DNA of 64,000 nt from NCBI GenBank assembly GCA_963729715.1, contig CAVSPA010000005.1, positions 672,001-736,000 of the forward strand, given 5' to 3'. The notes beneath the pieces were generated by a model that was given only the letters and a program-made list of their open reading frames with translations, made no database searches and had not been told where the DNA came from. How positions within the stretch are numbered: the first letter of the stretch is position 1; every line of letters begins with the position of its first letter. This document shows positions 55,117 to 60,664 of this stretch, piece by piece. This DNA is from an uncultured delta proteobacterium (lineage in GTDB: Bacteria > Desulfobacterota > Syntrophia > Syntrophales > UBA2185). The translations under genes and the position numbers were made by a program.

Positions 55117-56127
55117 TCAGGGAGATATTGCATCCCGAATAATTCGTTCAATTGCTTGGACGAAGCTTAAACCCGAGCGCTCTATGGCAGCATAAAATCC
55201 CCCGTCCGGAGACAGGCACGGATTTGTATTCACTTCCAGGACCCACGGCTTTCCTGTACCGTCGACACGAAAATCCACCCTCGCGTATCCCCGCAGGCCA
55301 AACACCTGCCAGCACTGAAGCGCCAGGTCCTCCAAGCGGACAAGCAAGGAAGCATCCTCATCCGGAAAGTCAAAACACCGCGGCGTGTGACGATATTCAA
55401 AAGAGTCTTCGACCCATTTGGAAAGGTAGTCGACTACCCTGACCTTATCCGGCGGGAAATCGTCAAAGCGAATCTCAGCCGGGGGAAGGACATGCGGCCC
55501 TCCAGCTCCCGCGAGGAGGGAGAGATTAAATTCCCTTCCCTCAATGAACGCTTCCGTAAAACACGCCATGCCGAGCTGCTTCTGCCGGTATGTAGTTGCT
55601 TCGCGGAGCTGATTATGATCTCTTACATGAATGATGGAATCGCTCCCGAGCCAGGTAGAGGCGTGTTCCCAAACAGCCTTGATGATATATGTGCCTTCGA
55701 CAAAATGTCCGCTGAGATTCTCATGGGGCATAAATAATGGAGGTGTGGCGATGCCCGCTGCATTCAAGATCTTTTTGGCGAGAACCTTGTTAGACGTGAG
55801 AAACGTAGCCTCCGTACTTGCGCCTGTGTAAGGGATTCTTAAGAAGTCCAGAACGGACGGGGCTATGTGGATCAGGCTCCCCTGTCCCGCCATTGTTTCC
55901 ACAATATTGAAAACGAACGCAGGCCGGAGGTCCCGCAGCATGTCGATTATGCGCGCGCAATTCAACGAGAAGGGCATGGTGATGGGTTGGTATCCGAGTT
56001 CCGAAAGGGCAGAGGACACTACTGCGGCCTGGACGAGGGCGTCCTTTTCATCCATGCCGGCATCATCCGGCACATCGCTGTGCAGCACGACTGCTTTCAT
56101 GAACTGTCTGTCAGCGTGGTGACTCAT
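55117..56127 (-). CDS. D-Ala-D-Ala ligase-like ATP-grasp enzyme 2
   Basis: FNIVE, PYTG, IIKAVWEHAS, EAFIEGREF, YARVDFR, LEVNTNP; start may be 56100. Confidence 0.88.
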   Translation of the reverse strand: MSHHADRQFMKAVVLHSDVPDDAGMDEKDALVQAAVVSSALSELGYQPITMPFSLNCARIIDMLRDLRPAFVFNIVETMAGQGSLIHIAPSVLDFLRIPYTGASTEATFLTSNKVLAKKILNAAGIATPPLFMPHENLSGHFVEGTYIIKAVWEHASTWLGSDSIIHVRDHNQLREATTYRQKQLGMACFTEAFIEGREFNLSLLAGAGGPHVLPPAEIRFDDFPPDKVRVVDYLSKWVEDSFEYRHTPRCFDFPDEDASLLVRLEDLALQCWQVFGLRGYARVDFRVDGTGKPWVLEVNTNPCLSPDGGFYAAIERSGLSFVQAIERIIRDAISP

Positions 56128-57178
56128 CGCCGTTGCGACAGGTGAGACAGGTGTGGTAATACCGTGACAGGGCGGGTTCAGCAGTTGGGCAAACAGTATA
56201 CGTGTCCTGGATGCGTTTTCGCGCCGATTCCATGATCATGTTGATGAGTTCATGGTAGGTGATGCCGGCAAGCTTGCAGATTATAGGGAGATCCGAATGG
56301 TCCGGATGCAGGCCCGCCAATGGGTTAATTTCTAGGAAATGCGGCAATCCCTTTTTGTCGGCGCGGATGTCGACCCTGCCTGCGTCTTTGCAGCCGAGTC
56401 CCCGCCACGCGGCAAGGGCTGTTTCCTGAACAGCCTGGGCCATGGGGTCATCGGCCAGCCGGTATTCCACAAGCTCCTCACAGTTCTCTTTGTTTATGTA
56501 GGAATAGACGCCTTTCTCCGCATCGTCTTTAAGGTGGACTTCCATGACCCCGAGTGCGACGGCATCCTTTCCCGTTCCGACTATACCCACAGTGAACTCC
56601 CGGCCGGGAAGAAAGCGCTCGACAAGAACGGGTTGCCGAAACGTAGTTAACAAAGACCGGCATACGAAGGAGAGCTGCTTTCGGGAAGTTATCTTCGACT
56701 GGGCGTTGATGCCCTTGCTTGTGCCTTCGGCCACGGGCTTCGCAAAAAGCGGAAATGGAAGCGAGATCTTGTCAATATCATGCTCTTCGTGCACAACTGC
56801 AAAATCAGGCGTCGGGATGCCGAGGTCGCGTATGACATGCTTGGTCATGCCTTTATGAAGGGTGAGCGAGAGGATAAGAGGATCGGAAAAGGTGTACGGG
56901 ATGTTGTAGACGTCAAGGATGGCCGGCACCTGGGCTTCTCTCGCGAGTCCCTCGATACCTTCGGCGATGTTAAAGACTATGTCCCATCTGTCGCCGCATG
57001 CCAGCCTTTTGACAAGTGACTTGATGTTGCCTATGCGATCGGTGGTATAACCTAAATCCTGCAGCGTCTGTTCAATTGCCTCTATCGTATCAGCCCGGTC
57101 AAACTCTGCAGCCTCTTCTTCATTTAATCCCTCTGCTATATAATCATCGCGAAGGTCGTATGTAATTCCCGTCCTCAA
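56111..57178 (-). CDS. D-Ala-D-Ala ligase-like ATP-grasp enzyme 1
   Basis: FNIAEG, PYTFS, KPVAEGTSKG, ERFLPGREFTV, RVDIR, EINPLAG. Confidence 0.88.
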   Translation of the reverse strand: MRTGITYDLRDDYIAEGLNEEEAAEFDRADTIEAIEQTLQDLGYTTDRIGNIKSLVKRLACGDRWDIVFNIAEGIEGLAREAQVPAILDVYNIPYTFSDPLILSLTLHKGMTKHVIRDLGIPTPDFAVVHEEHDIDKISLPFPLFAKPVAEGTSKGINAQSKITSRKQLSFVCRSLLTTFRQPVLVERFLPGREFTVGIVGTGKDAVALGVMEVHLKDDAEKGVYSYINKENCEELVEYRLADDPMAQAVQETALAAWRGLGCKDAGRVDIRADKKGLPHFLEINPLAGLHPDHSDLPIICKLAGITYHELINMIMESARKRIQDTYTVCPTAEPALSRYYHTCLTCRNGDESPR

Positions 57179-57188
57179 ATGTGATACC

Positions 57189-58499
57189 TCAGGGATTGTC
57201 CGTTTGCGGAAACTGGAAATCCGGATAACGGTAGATATTCCCCTCGTAATTTCGGAGCATCAGATCATTGCCGTCCCGGCCAACGGCATAATCGGGTATC
57301 AGGGGGATCTTGCCGCCGCCACCAGGAGCGTCGATGACGTATGTCGGTACTGCATAGCCTGTCGTATGCCCGCGCAGACCTTCGATGATATCGAGTCCGG
57401 CTTTTACGGGAGTGCGAAAATGCGATGATCCGGGGATCGGGTCACACTGATAGAGATAGTAGGGTTTGACCCGTATCTTAAGCAGGCCGAGAACCAGCCG
57501 CTTCATGGTTTCCACATCGTCGTTTATTTTGTGGAGCAGGACAGTCTGGCTGCCGAGTGGTATGCCCGCGTTGGCGAGGCGGGTGCATGCCTGACTCATT
57601 TCAGGCGTTAACTCATCCGGATGGTTCACGTGGATGCTCACCCAGAGAGGGTGAAAACGCTTTAGCATGTAAGTCAGTTTCGGAGTTATTCTCTGCGGCA
57701 GCACAACTGGCATCTTGGTACCGATACGCAGGATCTCTATATGGGCAATTTTTCTCAGCCGGTCGAGAAGCCATTCCAGTCTCTCGTCGGAAAGGGTCAG
57801 CGGATCCCCGCCGGACAAGAGCACGTCACGAATTTGAGTATTGGCTTCTATGTATTCAATGGCGCCTTCCCACGCATCAGTGCTCGATATGGCCCTGACG
57901 TGACTTCCGACCATGCGTGAGCGCGTGCAATACCGGCAGTACGCTGAACAGGTGTCCGTAACAAGGAATAGGACGCGATCCGGATAGCGGTGTACGATTC
58001 CCGGGACAGGGCTGTCATGCTCCTCTCCCAAGGGATCATCGGCTTCCACCGCAGAACGGCGACGCTCAGCGGTTACAGGCACCACCATCCGTCGTAGCGG
58101 CTGGGATGAATCGAATTCGTCAAGAAGGCTCGTGTAGTAAGGCGTGATGGCCACCGGTATCGAGCCCTCATGATGGCTCATGGCATTCCGCTCGTCCTCC
58201 GACAGCCAGATGAATTGCGAAAGTGCATCGACATCCTTTATGCGGTTGACGTATTGCCAGTGCCAGTTGCTCCATTCGAGGGATGTTACTTCAGGATAGA
58301 AACGCTTCCGAAAAGCCCGTGTACGGGGGCTCTCCTTAAAACGAAAAACGTATTGGACACCCTTTGTCTTAATGACCGAAGGGTTAAGGAGAGTATTATA
58401 TGCTGTTACTATGTCGTCTGTGTAATTTTCAATACCAACAAGACCTGTTGAACTACCCGGAGGTTCAGCCTCCTCCGTAAAAAGGGTCTCGTTTTCCAT
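57189..58499 (-). CDS. KamA family radical SAM/PLP aminomutase
   Basis: HRYPDR, CSAYCRYC, SGGDPL, QTVLL, PYYLYQCD, DAPGGGGK; start MENET at 58499 behind GGAGGAGG (ORF track over-extends it). Confidence 0.92.
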   Translation of the reverse strand: MENETLFTEEAEPPGSSTGLVGIENYTDDIVTAYNTLLNPSVIKTKGVQYVFRFKESPRTRAFRKRFYPEVTSLEWSNWHWQYVNRIKDVDALSQFIWLSEDERNAMSHHEGSIPVAITPYYTSLLDEFDSSQPLRRMVVPVTAERRRSAVEADDPLGEEHDSPVPGIVHRYPDRVLFLVTDTCSAYCRYCTRSRMVGSHVRAISSTDAWEGAIEYIEANTQIRDVLLSGGDPLTLSDERLEWLLDRLRKIAHIEILRIGTKMPVVLPQRITPKLTYMLKRFHPLWVSIHVNHPDELTPEMSQACTRLANAGIPLGSQTVLLHKINDDVETMKRLVLGLLKIRVKPYYLYQCDPIPGSSHFRTPVKAGLDIIEGLRGHTTGYAVPTYVIDAPGGGGKIPLIPDYAVGRDGNDLMLRNYEGNIYRYPDFQFPQTDNP

Positions 58500-58694
58500 T
58501 CTGTTATCCTCCTCCGTATCCAGGGATGATAAAAAAAATTCCCCTTTCTTTTTTTTGTGTAATATATTTTTTTCTGTACGCTGTTTAGAAATGCTTGTCA
58601 ATATTTTTTTCATTTTTTTTGAAAAAAAATTATTTTTCTTGAAAGAAGAAAAATCAAACTGTAAAATGCAGAAAAAATTTTTCGACAGGAGCAT

Positions 58695-59638: not shown

Positions 59639-60664
59639 TTACCGCTTGGCTGCGAGCGTCGCACGCAGCACTCCCAGACCATTTCTGATTTCAAACGTGC
59701 CCACGTATTTGCGGATGTCATCGCTTGCGTACTTGATGACGCATGTCGGAGTTGATTTAGCCTGGTATGTATTTATGATCTTATTGAGCGCCGGATACAC
59801 CGGTGACAGGTCGTAAACCGCGACGGGAACTCCCTCCGCCTTCAGCGCTTTCTTGAGGTCATCTTCACTCTGAGCGGCATGATTCTTTGCCAGAGAGAAT
59901 AGCACGCGCCGCGCATGGAGGACATTCTCGTAATTCTTTGCCGCCTTCGCCGCGTACAGATAGTACTGGGCATAGAGACGGGTTTCCTTATGGATAGGAA
60001 GATCGACGAAGGTCACCCTCACGCCTCCTCCGGACAGGAATTCCTTCACCGAGGGATCGAGCTCAGACTCCATAGTCTGGCAGTGCTCGCAGAAATAATC
60101 CGAGAAGATGATCAACTCGTATTTTCCCGAACCATACGAAGGCACAAGCGATTTTTCCGCACCATAAGCGGGTGTTGCAGAGCCGGAAAATGTGACGGCC
60201 ACGAAGCTATATCCGAGGATAACGAAAGCGAGAAGGGGTAAAGGCCTCTTCACGGCAGGAGGAAGCTCCACAGTGCCGAGGCCATAGATGATCCGGTTTG
60301 AGCAGCCTTTCCCGCGCGCGAGATCTTTTTCGTGGTTCAGTGCAAATGCGATGATAATCATAGATGCAAAGGCCAGGCAGTAGGGGCAAAACACATCCTC
60401 TTGGAACTGAAAGGCGATGAGATACGCCTCCACGCCAATCCCTGCTGCGAGGAGGGCGCGGACGTACGGCATTTTTTTCACAGCGGCAAGAATGATGATC
60501 ATCAGCATATACGCAATACCGATGTGTGACAGGTCAATCCCGAAGATATCCCCCTGCAGGTAGGTACAGGCCGTTTCGCATGTCTTATAATAAAGCATGA
60601 TTCCTATGCCTGCTGCCGCAAGGATTATTGTTATGACACGTCTTCCTGCTTTTATCTTTTCCAT
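59639..60664 (-). CDS. VKOR-like membrane domain fused to a DsbA/thioredoxin-fold domain
   Basis: TM-CETAC loop, TMs, CPYC; C-terminal FSDYFCEHC and STPT (cis-Pro). Confidence 0.75.
   Translation of the reverse strand: MEKIKAGRRVITIILAAAGIGIMLYYKTCETACTYLQGDIFGIDLSHIGIAYMLMIIILAAVKKMPYVRALLAAGIGVEAYLIAFQFQEDVFCPYCLAFASMIIIAFALNHEKDLARGKGCSNRIIYGLGTVELPPAVKRPLPLLAFVILGYSFVAVTFSGSATPAYGAEKSLVPSYGSGKYELIIFSDYFCEHCQTMESELDPSVKEFLSGGGVRVTFVDLPIHKETRLYAQYYLYAAKAAKNYENVLHARRVLFSLAKNHAAQSEDDLKKALKAEGVPVAVYDLSPVYPALNKIINTYQAKSTPTCVIKYASDDIRKYVGTFEIRNGLGVLRATLAAKR

Follow-up and report, generated by a model that had tools for sequence, protein, structure and literature searches.

Organisation of the locus

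The DNA analysed here, referred to as the window, is a 64,000-nucleotide stretch of an uncultured Syntrophales genome (GenBank assembly GCA_963729715.1, contig CAVSPA010000005.1; in our numbering G000:C5:672001-736000). Its minus strand carries three consecutive genes for a KamA-family aminomutase and two ATP-grasp ligases related to D-alanine--D-alanine ligase (Ddl), named Lig1 and Lig2, which are predicted to act together in a pathway that builds on beta-lysine. The host assembly (G000) comprises 3.76 Mb in 19 contigs and is 100% complete by marker genes, with 6.5% contamination.

The first gene, kamA (58499..57189, minus strand), encodes a 436 aa protein containing the Pfam domains Radical_SAM and LAM_C, and its ATG start codon is preceded by a strong ribosome site, GGAGGAGGA. 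The second, lig1 (57178..56111, minus strand), predicts a 355 aa protein matching Dala_Dala_lig_C at 98 bits, and begins with a TTG codon 10 nt past the kamA stop with GAGG in front. The third, lig2 (56127..55117, minus strand), predicts a 336 aa protein matching the same Pfam at 63 bits. Read from its first ATG, lig2 shares 17 nt with lig1; starting instead at a second ATG (56100), located 10 nt past the lig1 stop, gives a 327 aa version, and Lig2 orthologues mostly align from residue 10 onward only. The three genes are translationally coupled. All three minus-strand reading frames, with their coordinates and motif calls, had been reported in a first-pass annotation made from the sequence of this window, and all were reproduced here.

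Conservation of the gene order

The cassette recurs in the same arrangement well outside the window. In all 20 loci surrounding Lig1 orthologues in related genomes, KamA, Lig1 and Lig2 are encoded in the same order. One of these loci is cut by a contig end, and in another (L015 in genome G021; also L093) KamA and Lig2 are split over several frames, which reflects either decay or sequencing errors in a metagenome-assembled genome (MAG) that is 82% complete. A cross-phylum set of 80 Lig2 loci was drawn from a scan of one genome per species, and the 70 loci with at least 2.6 kb of sequence upstream of Lig2 were used to assess the upstream genes. Lig1 was found in 66 and KamA in 62 of the 70, and both precede Lig2 in 61; the nine exceptions include three Pirellulaceae loci that have Lig1 and Lig2 without an adjacent KamA. 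With this order shown by 61 of the 70 informative loci, the arrangement is far beyond chance. The first-pass annotation had anticipated similar triads in other anaerobes, and both locus sets bear this out; its own reservation, that the three genes might not be conserved together, does not apply.

Genomes carrying the cassette belong to the Syntrophales, Desulfobacterales, Planctomycetota, Leptospirales, Sphaerochaeta and other Spirochaetota, Gammaproteobacteria, Bacteroidota, Bacillota and Armatimonadia, and include a Gloeobacteraceae MAG. The closest public records are Syntrophaceae/Syntrophales MAGs from fen and peat samples. Sampling of the host's phylum (301 genomes, 199 genera) found a Lig1 orthologue in 73 genomes and 48 genera, distributed family by family. 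A search of a library of 1.84 billion proteins returned 845 clusters at 50% identity that match Lig1 at E<=1e-30.

Fusions within the cassette join only genes that are neighbours in the gene order. Lig2 is fused to an acetyltransferase of the GNAT family, described below, in seven of the 80 loci, and Lig1 to Lig2 in one. The best 150 Lig1 representatives include 15 Lig1-Lig2 fusions, one KamA-Lig1 fusion, and one in which a YkgJ-type CxxCxxCC domain is joined to Lig1. Because the fusions link only neighbours, we infer a single pathway in the order KamA, Lig1, Lig2, GNAT. In a structure model of one natural Lig1-Lig2 fusion (P0006, 644 aa, from a 12-row alignment) both halves are confident, with a mean predicted local distance difference test score (pLDDT) of 87.6, and the placement of the two modules relative to each other is not fixed (predicted template modelling score 0.56).

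Further genes accompany the cassette in a minority of the 80 loci. These are a fusion of a GNAT with a Hist_deacetyl domain (6 loci), a DMT_6 membrane protein (7 loci) and a MatE protein (4 loci), and Pfam searches on 76 neighbours from diverse loci revealed no recurrent partner other than these and GNAT itself.

Two groups of loci and proteins have a more elaborate composition. In Sphaerochaeta (loci L094-L102; for example L095:5279-10259), KamA, Lig1, Lig2 and GNAT are joined by a second GNAT, a 353 aa protein that belongs to no Pfam family and an M42 aminopeptidase, and a third Lig2-like ligase lies on the opposite strand. Sixteen of the best 150 Lig1 representatives are more distant tandem-ligase fusions of approximately 600-720 aa (for example P0039, P0041, P0052, P0056 and P0068). 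The C-terminal half of these proteins is 37-40% identical to Lig1 and the N-terminal half falls in a separate clade; this family possibly serves another pathway that likewise relies on a pair of ligases. Representative P0085 (980 aa) has an odd architecture, with leucine-rich repeats before the Lig1-like ATP-grasp domain.

KamA is predicted to form beta-lysine

KamA matches the solved lysine 2,3-aminomutase from Clostridium (PDB 2A5H) with an E value of 1.6e-132, and the alignment contains each of the features on which its recognition as a KamA-like enzyme had been based. C184, C188 and C191 of the CxxxCxxC motif correspond to C125, C129 and C132 of 2A5H and are present in all 51 cassette orthologues. 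K397, in the GGGGK motif, corresponds to the pyridoxal phosphate (PLP) lysine K337 and is kept in 50 of the 51. The tail beyond K397 is only about 39 residues long and lacks a Cys cluster, as do the tails of all 51 orthologues, which have 0-1 Cys. In 2A5H, the zinc site presumably consists of C268 and a C-terminal Cys cluster; the residue of KamA that aligns with C268 is D328.

Three further residues, R193, D353 and D390, correspond to R134, D293 and D330 of 2A5H and are kept in 51, 51 and 50 of the 51 orthologues, respectively. We take these to be the residues that bind the carboxylate and the epsilon-ammonium group of lysine, and to differ in glutamate 2,3-aminomutases. As all three lysine-binding residues are kept together with a full active site, the predicted reaction of KamA is the conversion of lysine to beta-lysine. 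This narrows the earlier proposal of beta-Lys, beta-Glu or beta-Arg to the first of the three.

The NCBIfam models agree with a place in the KamA subfamily near, and outside, the named enzymes. KamA scores 340.8 on TIGR00238 (cut-off 199.2), which describes the subfamily. The nearest equivalog is that of AblA (TIGR03820), on which the score of 486.5 is below the cut-off of 525.4. On the EpmB equivalog KamA reaches 251.7 against a cut-off of 369.3, and it scores well below the glutamate and arginine aminomutase equivalogs.

Lig1 and Lig2 form two clades outside canonical Ddl

Lig1 and Lig2 are 27% identical to each other, and both are far under every curated Ddl or Van cut-off. On the Ddl models TIGR01205 and NF002378 (cut-offs 245.65 and 243), Lig1 scores 123.2 and 154.7, and Lig2 scores 88.4 and 111.9. 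General similarity to Ddl is nevertheless clear: the AF2 (AlphaFold2) model of Lig2 (pLDDT 90.7) has only Ddl among its best PDB matches, at ∼22% identity, and the ESM Atlas returned only clusters labelled 'D-alanine--D-alanine ligase family protein' for the ligases.

Orthologues of Lig1 (38 sequences) and Lig2 (37 sequences) were aligned with Escherichia coli DdlB. K97, K144, E148, E180, E187, K215, R255, D257, E270 and N272 of DdlB, which we take to be its ATP, Mg and catalytic set, are kept in 37-38 of the 38 Lig1 and 36-37 of the 37 Lig2 sequences. The GGxSxE motif of DdlB is found in neither ligase, in agreement with the first-pass annotation, which had described two overlapping Ddl-like ligases without it. 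DdlB residues G10/G11/S13/E15 are replaced by N19/E20/E22/A24 in Lig1, and by a gap followed by D22/G24/D26 in Lig2. Of the residues that presumably bind D-Ala in DdlB (E15, S150, Y216, S281 and L282), only S281 is kept in Lig1, which has A, T and mostly E at the first three positions and an invariant D296 at the last; invariant E25 and D27 lie beside the position where A replaces E15. Lig2 has an invariant D26, A, an invariant W238, A/S/G and G310 at the same five positions, and an invariant Cys, C304, at DdlB G276. The D-Ala pockets of the two ligases have been rebuilt in a family-specific manner, with acidic residues gained in Lig1 and small or aromatic residues in Lig2. The acidic pocket of Lig1 would suit a diamino substrate such as beta-lysine, and the second site of Lig2, predicted to be roomier and less polar, would suit a larger intermediate.

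A quick maximum-likelihood tree with SH-aLRT (approximate likelihood ratio test) support, for which the careful search is unfinished, was built from 21 Lig1 and 21 Lig2 rows and five canonical Ddl. A branch with a support of 100 splits the canonical Ddl from Lig1, Lig2 and a third paralogue. Lig1 is monophyletic across phyla (support 100), and Lig2 forms a separate clade (support 99), so that the two seem to represent two old clades outside canonical Ddl. Several groupings recur within both clades, among them a set from the Gammaproteobacteria, the pair L046 and L056, and the pairing of the window with L032, which fits co-inheritance of Lig1 and Lig2. Compared with DdlA/DdlB and the VanA family, the cassette ligases share the three-domain ATP-grasp fold and all residues for ATP, Mg and the acyl-phosphate, but they differ in scoring below the cut-offs, in the replaced D-Ala1 and D-Ala2 residues, in their separate clades and in their location outside the dcw cluster.

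The third paralogue is a Ddl-like ATP-grasp protein of 352 aa without GGxSxE, encoded outside the window at G000:C5:48041-49099 and conserved in relatives. The quick tree places it as the sister of the Lig2 clade, and the gene preceding it is hypB-like by eye.

Canonical Ddl and a possible role in the cell wall

The homology of both ligases to Ddl raises the question of whether one or both make D-Ala-D-Ala, or a beta-lysine-containing stem-peptide or cross-bridge unit. The host assembly seems at first to favour such a role. Neither the Ddl models nor searches with E. coli and congeneric Ddl proteins detected a canonical ddl in G000, matching nothing beyond Lig1 and Lig2, the third paralogue and one open reading frame (ORF) resembling carbamoyl-phosphate synthase, and the dcw cluster (G000:C14:42000-61000) has murC-murB-ftsQ without ddl. 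A gene named by eye from its sequence as an Mpl-like murein peptide ligase also follows GNAT in three Desulfobacterales loci.

The related genomes argue otherwise. Canonical Ddl above the cut-off is present in 35 of 41 relatives, usually as two tandem copies, and in 9 of the 10 other genomes of the genus. A Lig1 orthologue is found in 34 of the 41, and 29 of these 34 also have canonical Ddl; the caution attached to the first-pass reading, that the ligases might make D-Ala-D-Ala, loses its force in view of this coexistence. The complete genome of the congener G005 has a single four-gene segment (C1:2498000-2503500), in which a pair of ddl genes encloses another gene and is followed by an alr-like gene, and none of the four proteins was matched in the G000 assembly, where the missing segment is probably an assembly gap. 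Replacement of Ddl by the cassette in the host was rejected because congeners have Ddl and the whole four-gene segment is missing from G000. With the D-Ala-binding residues replaced, and a distribution in the phylum that is patchy, unlike that of an essential wall function, a role in the cell wall is highly improbable. Among the product classes suggested in the first-pass annotation (a dipeptide or tripeptide acting as osmolyte, cell-wall unit or protein modification), the cell-wall unit has the least support.

Tandem pairs of canonical ddl genes were seen in relatives (for example G005:C1:2498000-2503500 and G026:C28:6000-9500), with each copy forming its own clade across genera. The duplication of this housekeeping ligase in the Syntrophales is an old one.

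A relocated GNAT is the likely fourth member

Clustering of the flanking ORFs showed that in 43 loci the gene immediately following lig2 encodes a GNAT of approximately 165 aa. When fused forms are counted, GNAT lies within 3 kb downstream of Lig2 in 57 of the 74 loci with enough downstream DNA, and 11 of the 17 loci that lack it there are from the genus of the window and its nearest kin. The host has a single GNAT homologue (E 2e-33), at G000:C7:408232-408852 next to a NUDIX-like gene, which is 39% identical to a cassette GNAT of the same family. The gene is unlinked from the cassette in all 11 genomes of the genus, and in G005 it is approximately 110 kb away. Exactly one GNAT, either cassette-adjacent or relocated, is present in 34 of the 41 relatives. 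Lig1 and GNAT are both present in 32 of the 41 genomes, both absent in five and discordant in four; in two of these four, a contig end or low completeness accounts for the mismatch. Since one GNAT per genome co-occurs with Lig1, the four-gene system in the host would be complete but split. The statement in the first-pass annotation that no acetyltransferase is present therefore holds for adjacent genes and not for the system, as a small GNAT encoded on another contig is the fourth member.

The profile of the GNAT family matches PDB 2R7H with an E value of 5.9e-57, and the next relatives are RimI and the N-alpha-acetyltransferases (Naa). A solved structure of the fourth enzyme is therefore available, as 2R7H belongs to the cassette GNAT family. 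Its title, 'putative D-alanine N-acetyltransferase of GNAT family', is the depositor's guess and the function is uncharacterised; the only paper found to mention 2R7H concerns an unrelated Salmonella toxin.

Relationship to known systems

In bacteria and archaea, beta-lysine is known to be a precursor of osmolytes, to modify EF-P and to be a building block of antibiotics. A route from lysine to an osmolyte by AblA and AblB operates in methanogens and has been proposed in some bacteria (PMC3543383, PMC11201294). The cassette resembles this route in that its first enzyme is a lysine 2,3-aminomutase in which the residues that bind lysine are unchanged, a GNAT-fold enzyme comes last, and a small molecule derived from beta-lysine would be formed. 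It differs in the insertion of a further pair of conserved ATP-grasp ligases between these two enzymes, in a GNAT that is shorter and of a different family, and in a KamA that lies below the AblA cut-off and is without the C-terminal Cys cluster.

The likeness is sufficient for plain synthesis of N-epsilon-acetyl-beta-lysine, with the ligases unrelated to it, to be considered. The proximity of KamA to the AblA equivalog (486.5 versus 525.4) and the membership of GNAT in the system point in this direction. However, the GNAT of approximately 165 aa is a poor candidate for AblB, as the score of cassette GNATs on TIGR03827, the model for AblB, stays at 16 bits against a cut-off of 205, and the host genome contains no match to this family. 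The ligases, moreover, are conserved as much as KamA, are coupled to kamA and are found fused to KamA and GNAT. The plain route is thus very unlikely, and together with the cell-wall unit it is the alternative least consistent with the data.

EpmB and EpmA provide a second precedent, in which a KamA-family aminomutase supplies beta-lysine for an ATP-dependent amide bond. Here the ligase EpmA is a LysRS paralogue and not an ATP-grasp enzyme, and the cassette KamA is below the EpmB cut-off. The host has a separate epmB-efp-epmA cluster (G000:C14:28359-32357) that holds a second KamA paralogue and an EF-P with a KPGKG loop, and is predicted to beta-lysylate EF-P through that paralogue; with this cluster present, modification of EF-P is already provided for. 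No match to lysine 5,6-aminomutase was found in the host genome, a weak result as the search control also gave no match.

A third comparison is with N-acetylglutaminylglutamine amide (NAGGN), the synthetase of which is a RimK-type ATP-grasp enzyme. NAGGN is likewise an acetylated peptide solute of the di- or tripeptide kind, made by an ATP-grasp enzyme with a GNAT, the two sometimes fused, and an M42 peptidase is associated with it, as in the Sphaerochaeta cassettes. By contrast, the cassette has no amidotransferase, its building block would be beta-lysine and its ATP-grasp enzymes are of the Ddl type. TIGR03103, which models the NAGGN synthetase, reached no more than 19.7 bits, and this with a different GNAT; NAGGN is best regarded as an analogy for the cassette and not as a system to which it belongs. 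No published description of this gene combination was found in the full-text literature covered, which excludes subscription journals.

Leader, expression and flanking genes

An AT-rich leader of 195 bp (58500..58694, minus strand) separates kamA from fpg. It is conserved in the genus, with a mean column identity of 83% over nine aligned congeneric loci, and in this alignment TTGACAAGCATTT and the ribosome site GGAGGAGGA are invariant. A scan for sigma-70 promoters gave weak sites only, the invariant TTGACA being followed by a poor -10 element, and the leader presumably acts as the promoter of the cassette. Two other forms of control were considered. For a riboswitch or other RNA, the leader gave no Rfam match up to E 1; the one match in the cassette, to a snoRNA inside lig1, is attributable to chance. 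For a sigma-54 promoter, the window contains 29 matches where 28 are expected by chance, and none is upstream of kamA.

Portions of kamA, lig1 and lig2 are spanned by metatranscriptome contigs from two libraries, each from a different study, at 90-95% identity to the window; one of these contigs extends from inside kamA to 58535. Contig depth cannot rank the genes, and parts of the stretch that are not covered are uninformative for expression.

Downstream of lig2, a gap of 237 bp is followed by unrelated genes for a DUF47 protein and a PHO4 phosphate transporter, and upstream of kamA lies the divergent and likewise unrelated fpg/mutM. With these neighbours, the first-pass annotation was correct in listing no adjacent epmA, ablB-like or lysine-fermentation genes. 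Adjoining fpg throughout the genus is a gene (59639-60664, minus strand) for a 341 aa protein in which a VKOR-like membrane domain is fused to a thioredoxin-fold domain, likely a disulfide oxidoreductase that substitutes for DsbB.

Proposed pathway

The best-supported interpretation, to which we assign a rough probability of 0.55, is that the cassette directs synthesis of a small soluble acetylated beta-lysine peptide or conjugate, by means of two ATP-dependent amide bonds and an N-acetylation. KamA would turn L-lysine into beta-lysine. Lig1 would then form the first amide bond, handling the diamino acid itself, and Lig2 would add the second, acting on the larger intermediate. GNAT would complete the product by acetylating the remaining free amino group as a cap. 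This order of steps follows the gene order and the restriction of fusions to neighbours. The product would be a neutral or zwitterionic beta-lysine peptide or conjugate, and its role, the weakest step of the proposal, may be that of a stress-protective solute or a polyamine-like cytoplasmic compound. The core of the first-pass reading, an aminomutase feeding two amide ligases that are not Ddl, is retained at the level of sequence.

Several observations weigh against this interpretation. All of the chemistry is deduced from residues and gene order. In the genus of the host, GNAT is unlinked and diverged, and its partnership with the cassette is suggested by the one-per-genome pattern only. The nearest characterised relatives of GNAT, RimI and Naa, are protein N-alpha-acetyltransferases, a kinship that would fit the N-terminus of a peptide and a protein target equally well. 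The RNA-library contigs stem from relatives and could include DNA carry-over, so that they give only a weak hint of expression in peat or soil. Lastly, hosts in the genus come from peat, fen and wetland samples, which disfavours a classical salt osmolyte; a general protectant is not disfavoured.

The kinship of GNAT also bears on the possibility that the cassette modifies a protein. The ATP-grasp enzymes would attach beta-lysine, or a short peptide of it, to the terminus or a side chain of that protein, and the RimI-like GNAT would cap it, comparable to tailing by RimK or TTL and to beta-lysylation of EF-P. Besides RimI and the N-alpha-acetyltransferases, which are the best characterised matches of GNAT after 2R7H, weak matches of Lig2 to TTL (E 0.0026) and to the Pfam ATPgrasp_ST, and the GNAT-Hist_deacetyl fusion, are in keeping with this alternative. 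Yet no candidate target gene travels with the cassette, the flanking genes outside the Syntrophales being nearly all singletons, and both by fold and by sequence the ligases have only small-molecule Ddl as neighbours. EF-P, an obvious target, has its own epmB and epmA in the host. We regard modification of a protein as unlikely.

An equally unlikely alternative is that the ligase pair makes a polyamine-like oligomer of beta-lysine, a polycation whose charge would be adjusted by adding and removing acetyl groups and which would in some cases be exported. Both ligases have extra invariant acidic residues (D8, E25, D27, E73 and D296 in Lig1; D26, D29, E77, E218 and E244 in Lig2) in line with such a product. 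The GNAT-Hist_deacetyl fusions (6 of 80 loci) would provide for deacetylation, and the DMT_6 and MatE membrane proteins in or beside some cassettes would provide for export. However, an iterative homo-oligomer is not obviously in need of two anciently diverged ligases with different pockets.

Taken more broadly, the soluble acetylated peptide or conjugate and the polycation would both belong to an overlooked class of metabolites, an acetylated beta-lysine peptide or oligo-beta-lysine made without ribosomes or non-ribosomal peptide synthetases by a Ddl-derived ligase pair, often fused and acting as one unit, and used as a cytoplasmic protectant or polyamine substitute in anaerobes. We put the chances of this broader proposal at slightly less than even.

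If it is true, the class would be present in about a quarter of the sampled Desulfobacterota-type genomes and in many other phyla. The cassette couples beta-lysine to a dedicated pair of amide ligases and to an acetyltransferase, and it does so in many phyla, mostly in uncultured anaerobes that include syntrophs of peat and digesters. Knowledge of the product would give the Ddl branch of the ATP-grasp superfamily a further metabolite and two new substrate specificities, and would correct hundreds of annotations as 'D-alanine--D-alanine ligase' and 'D-alanine N-acetyltransferase'. It would also open the stress physiology of the organisms that drive methanogenic carbon turnover.

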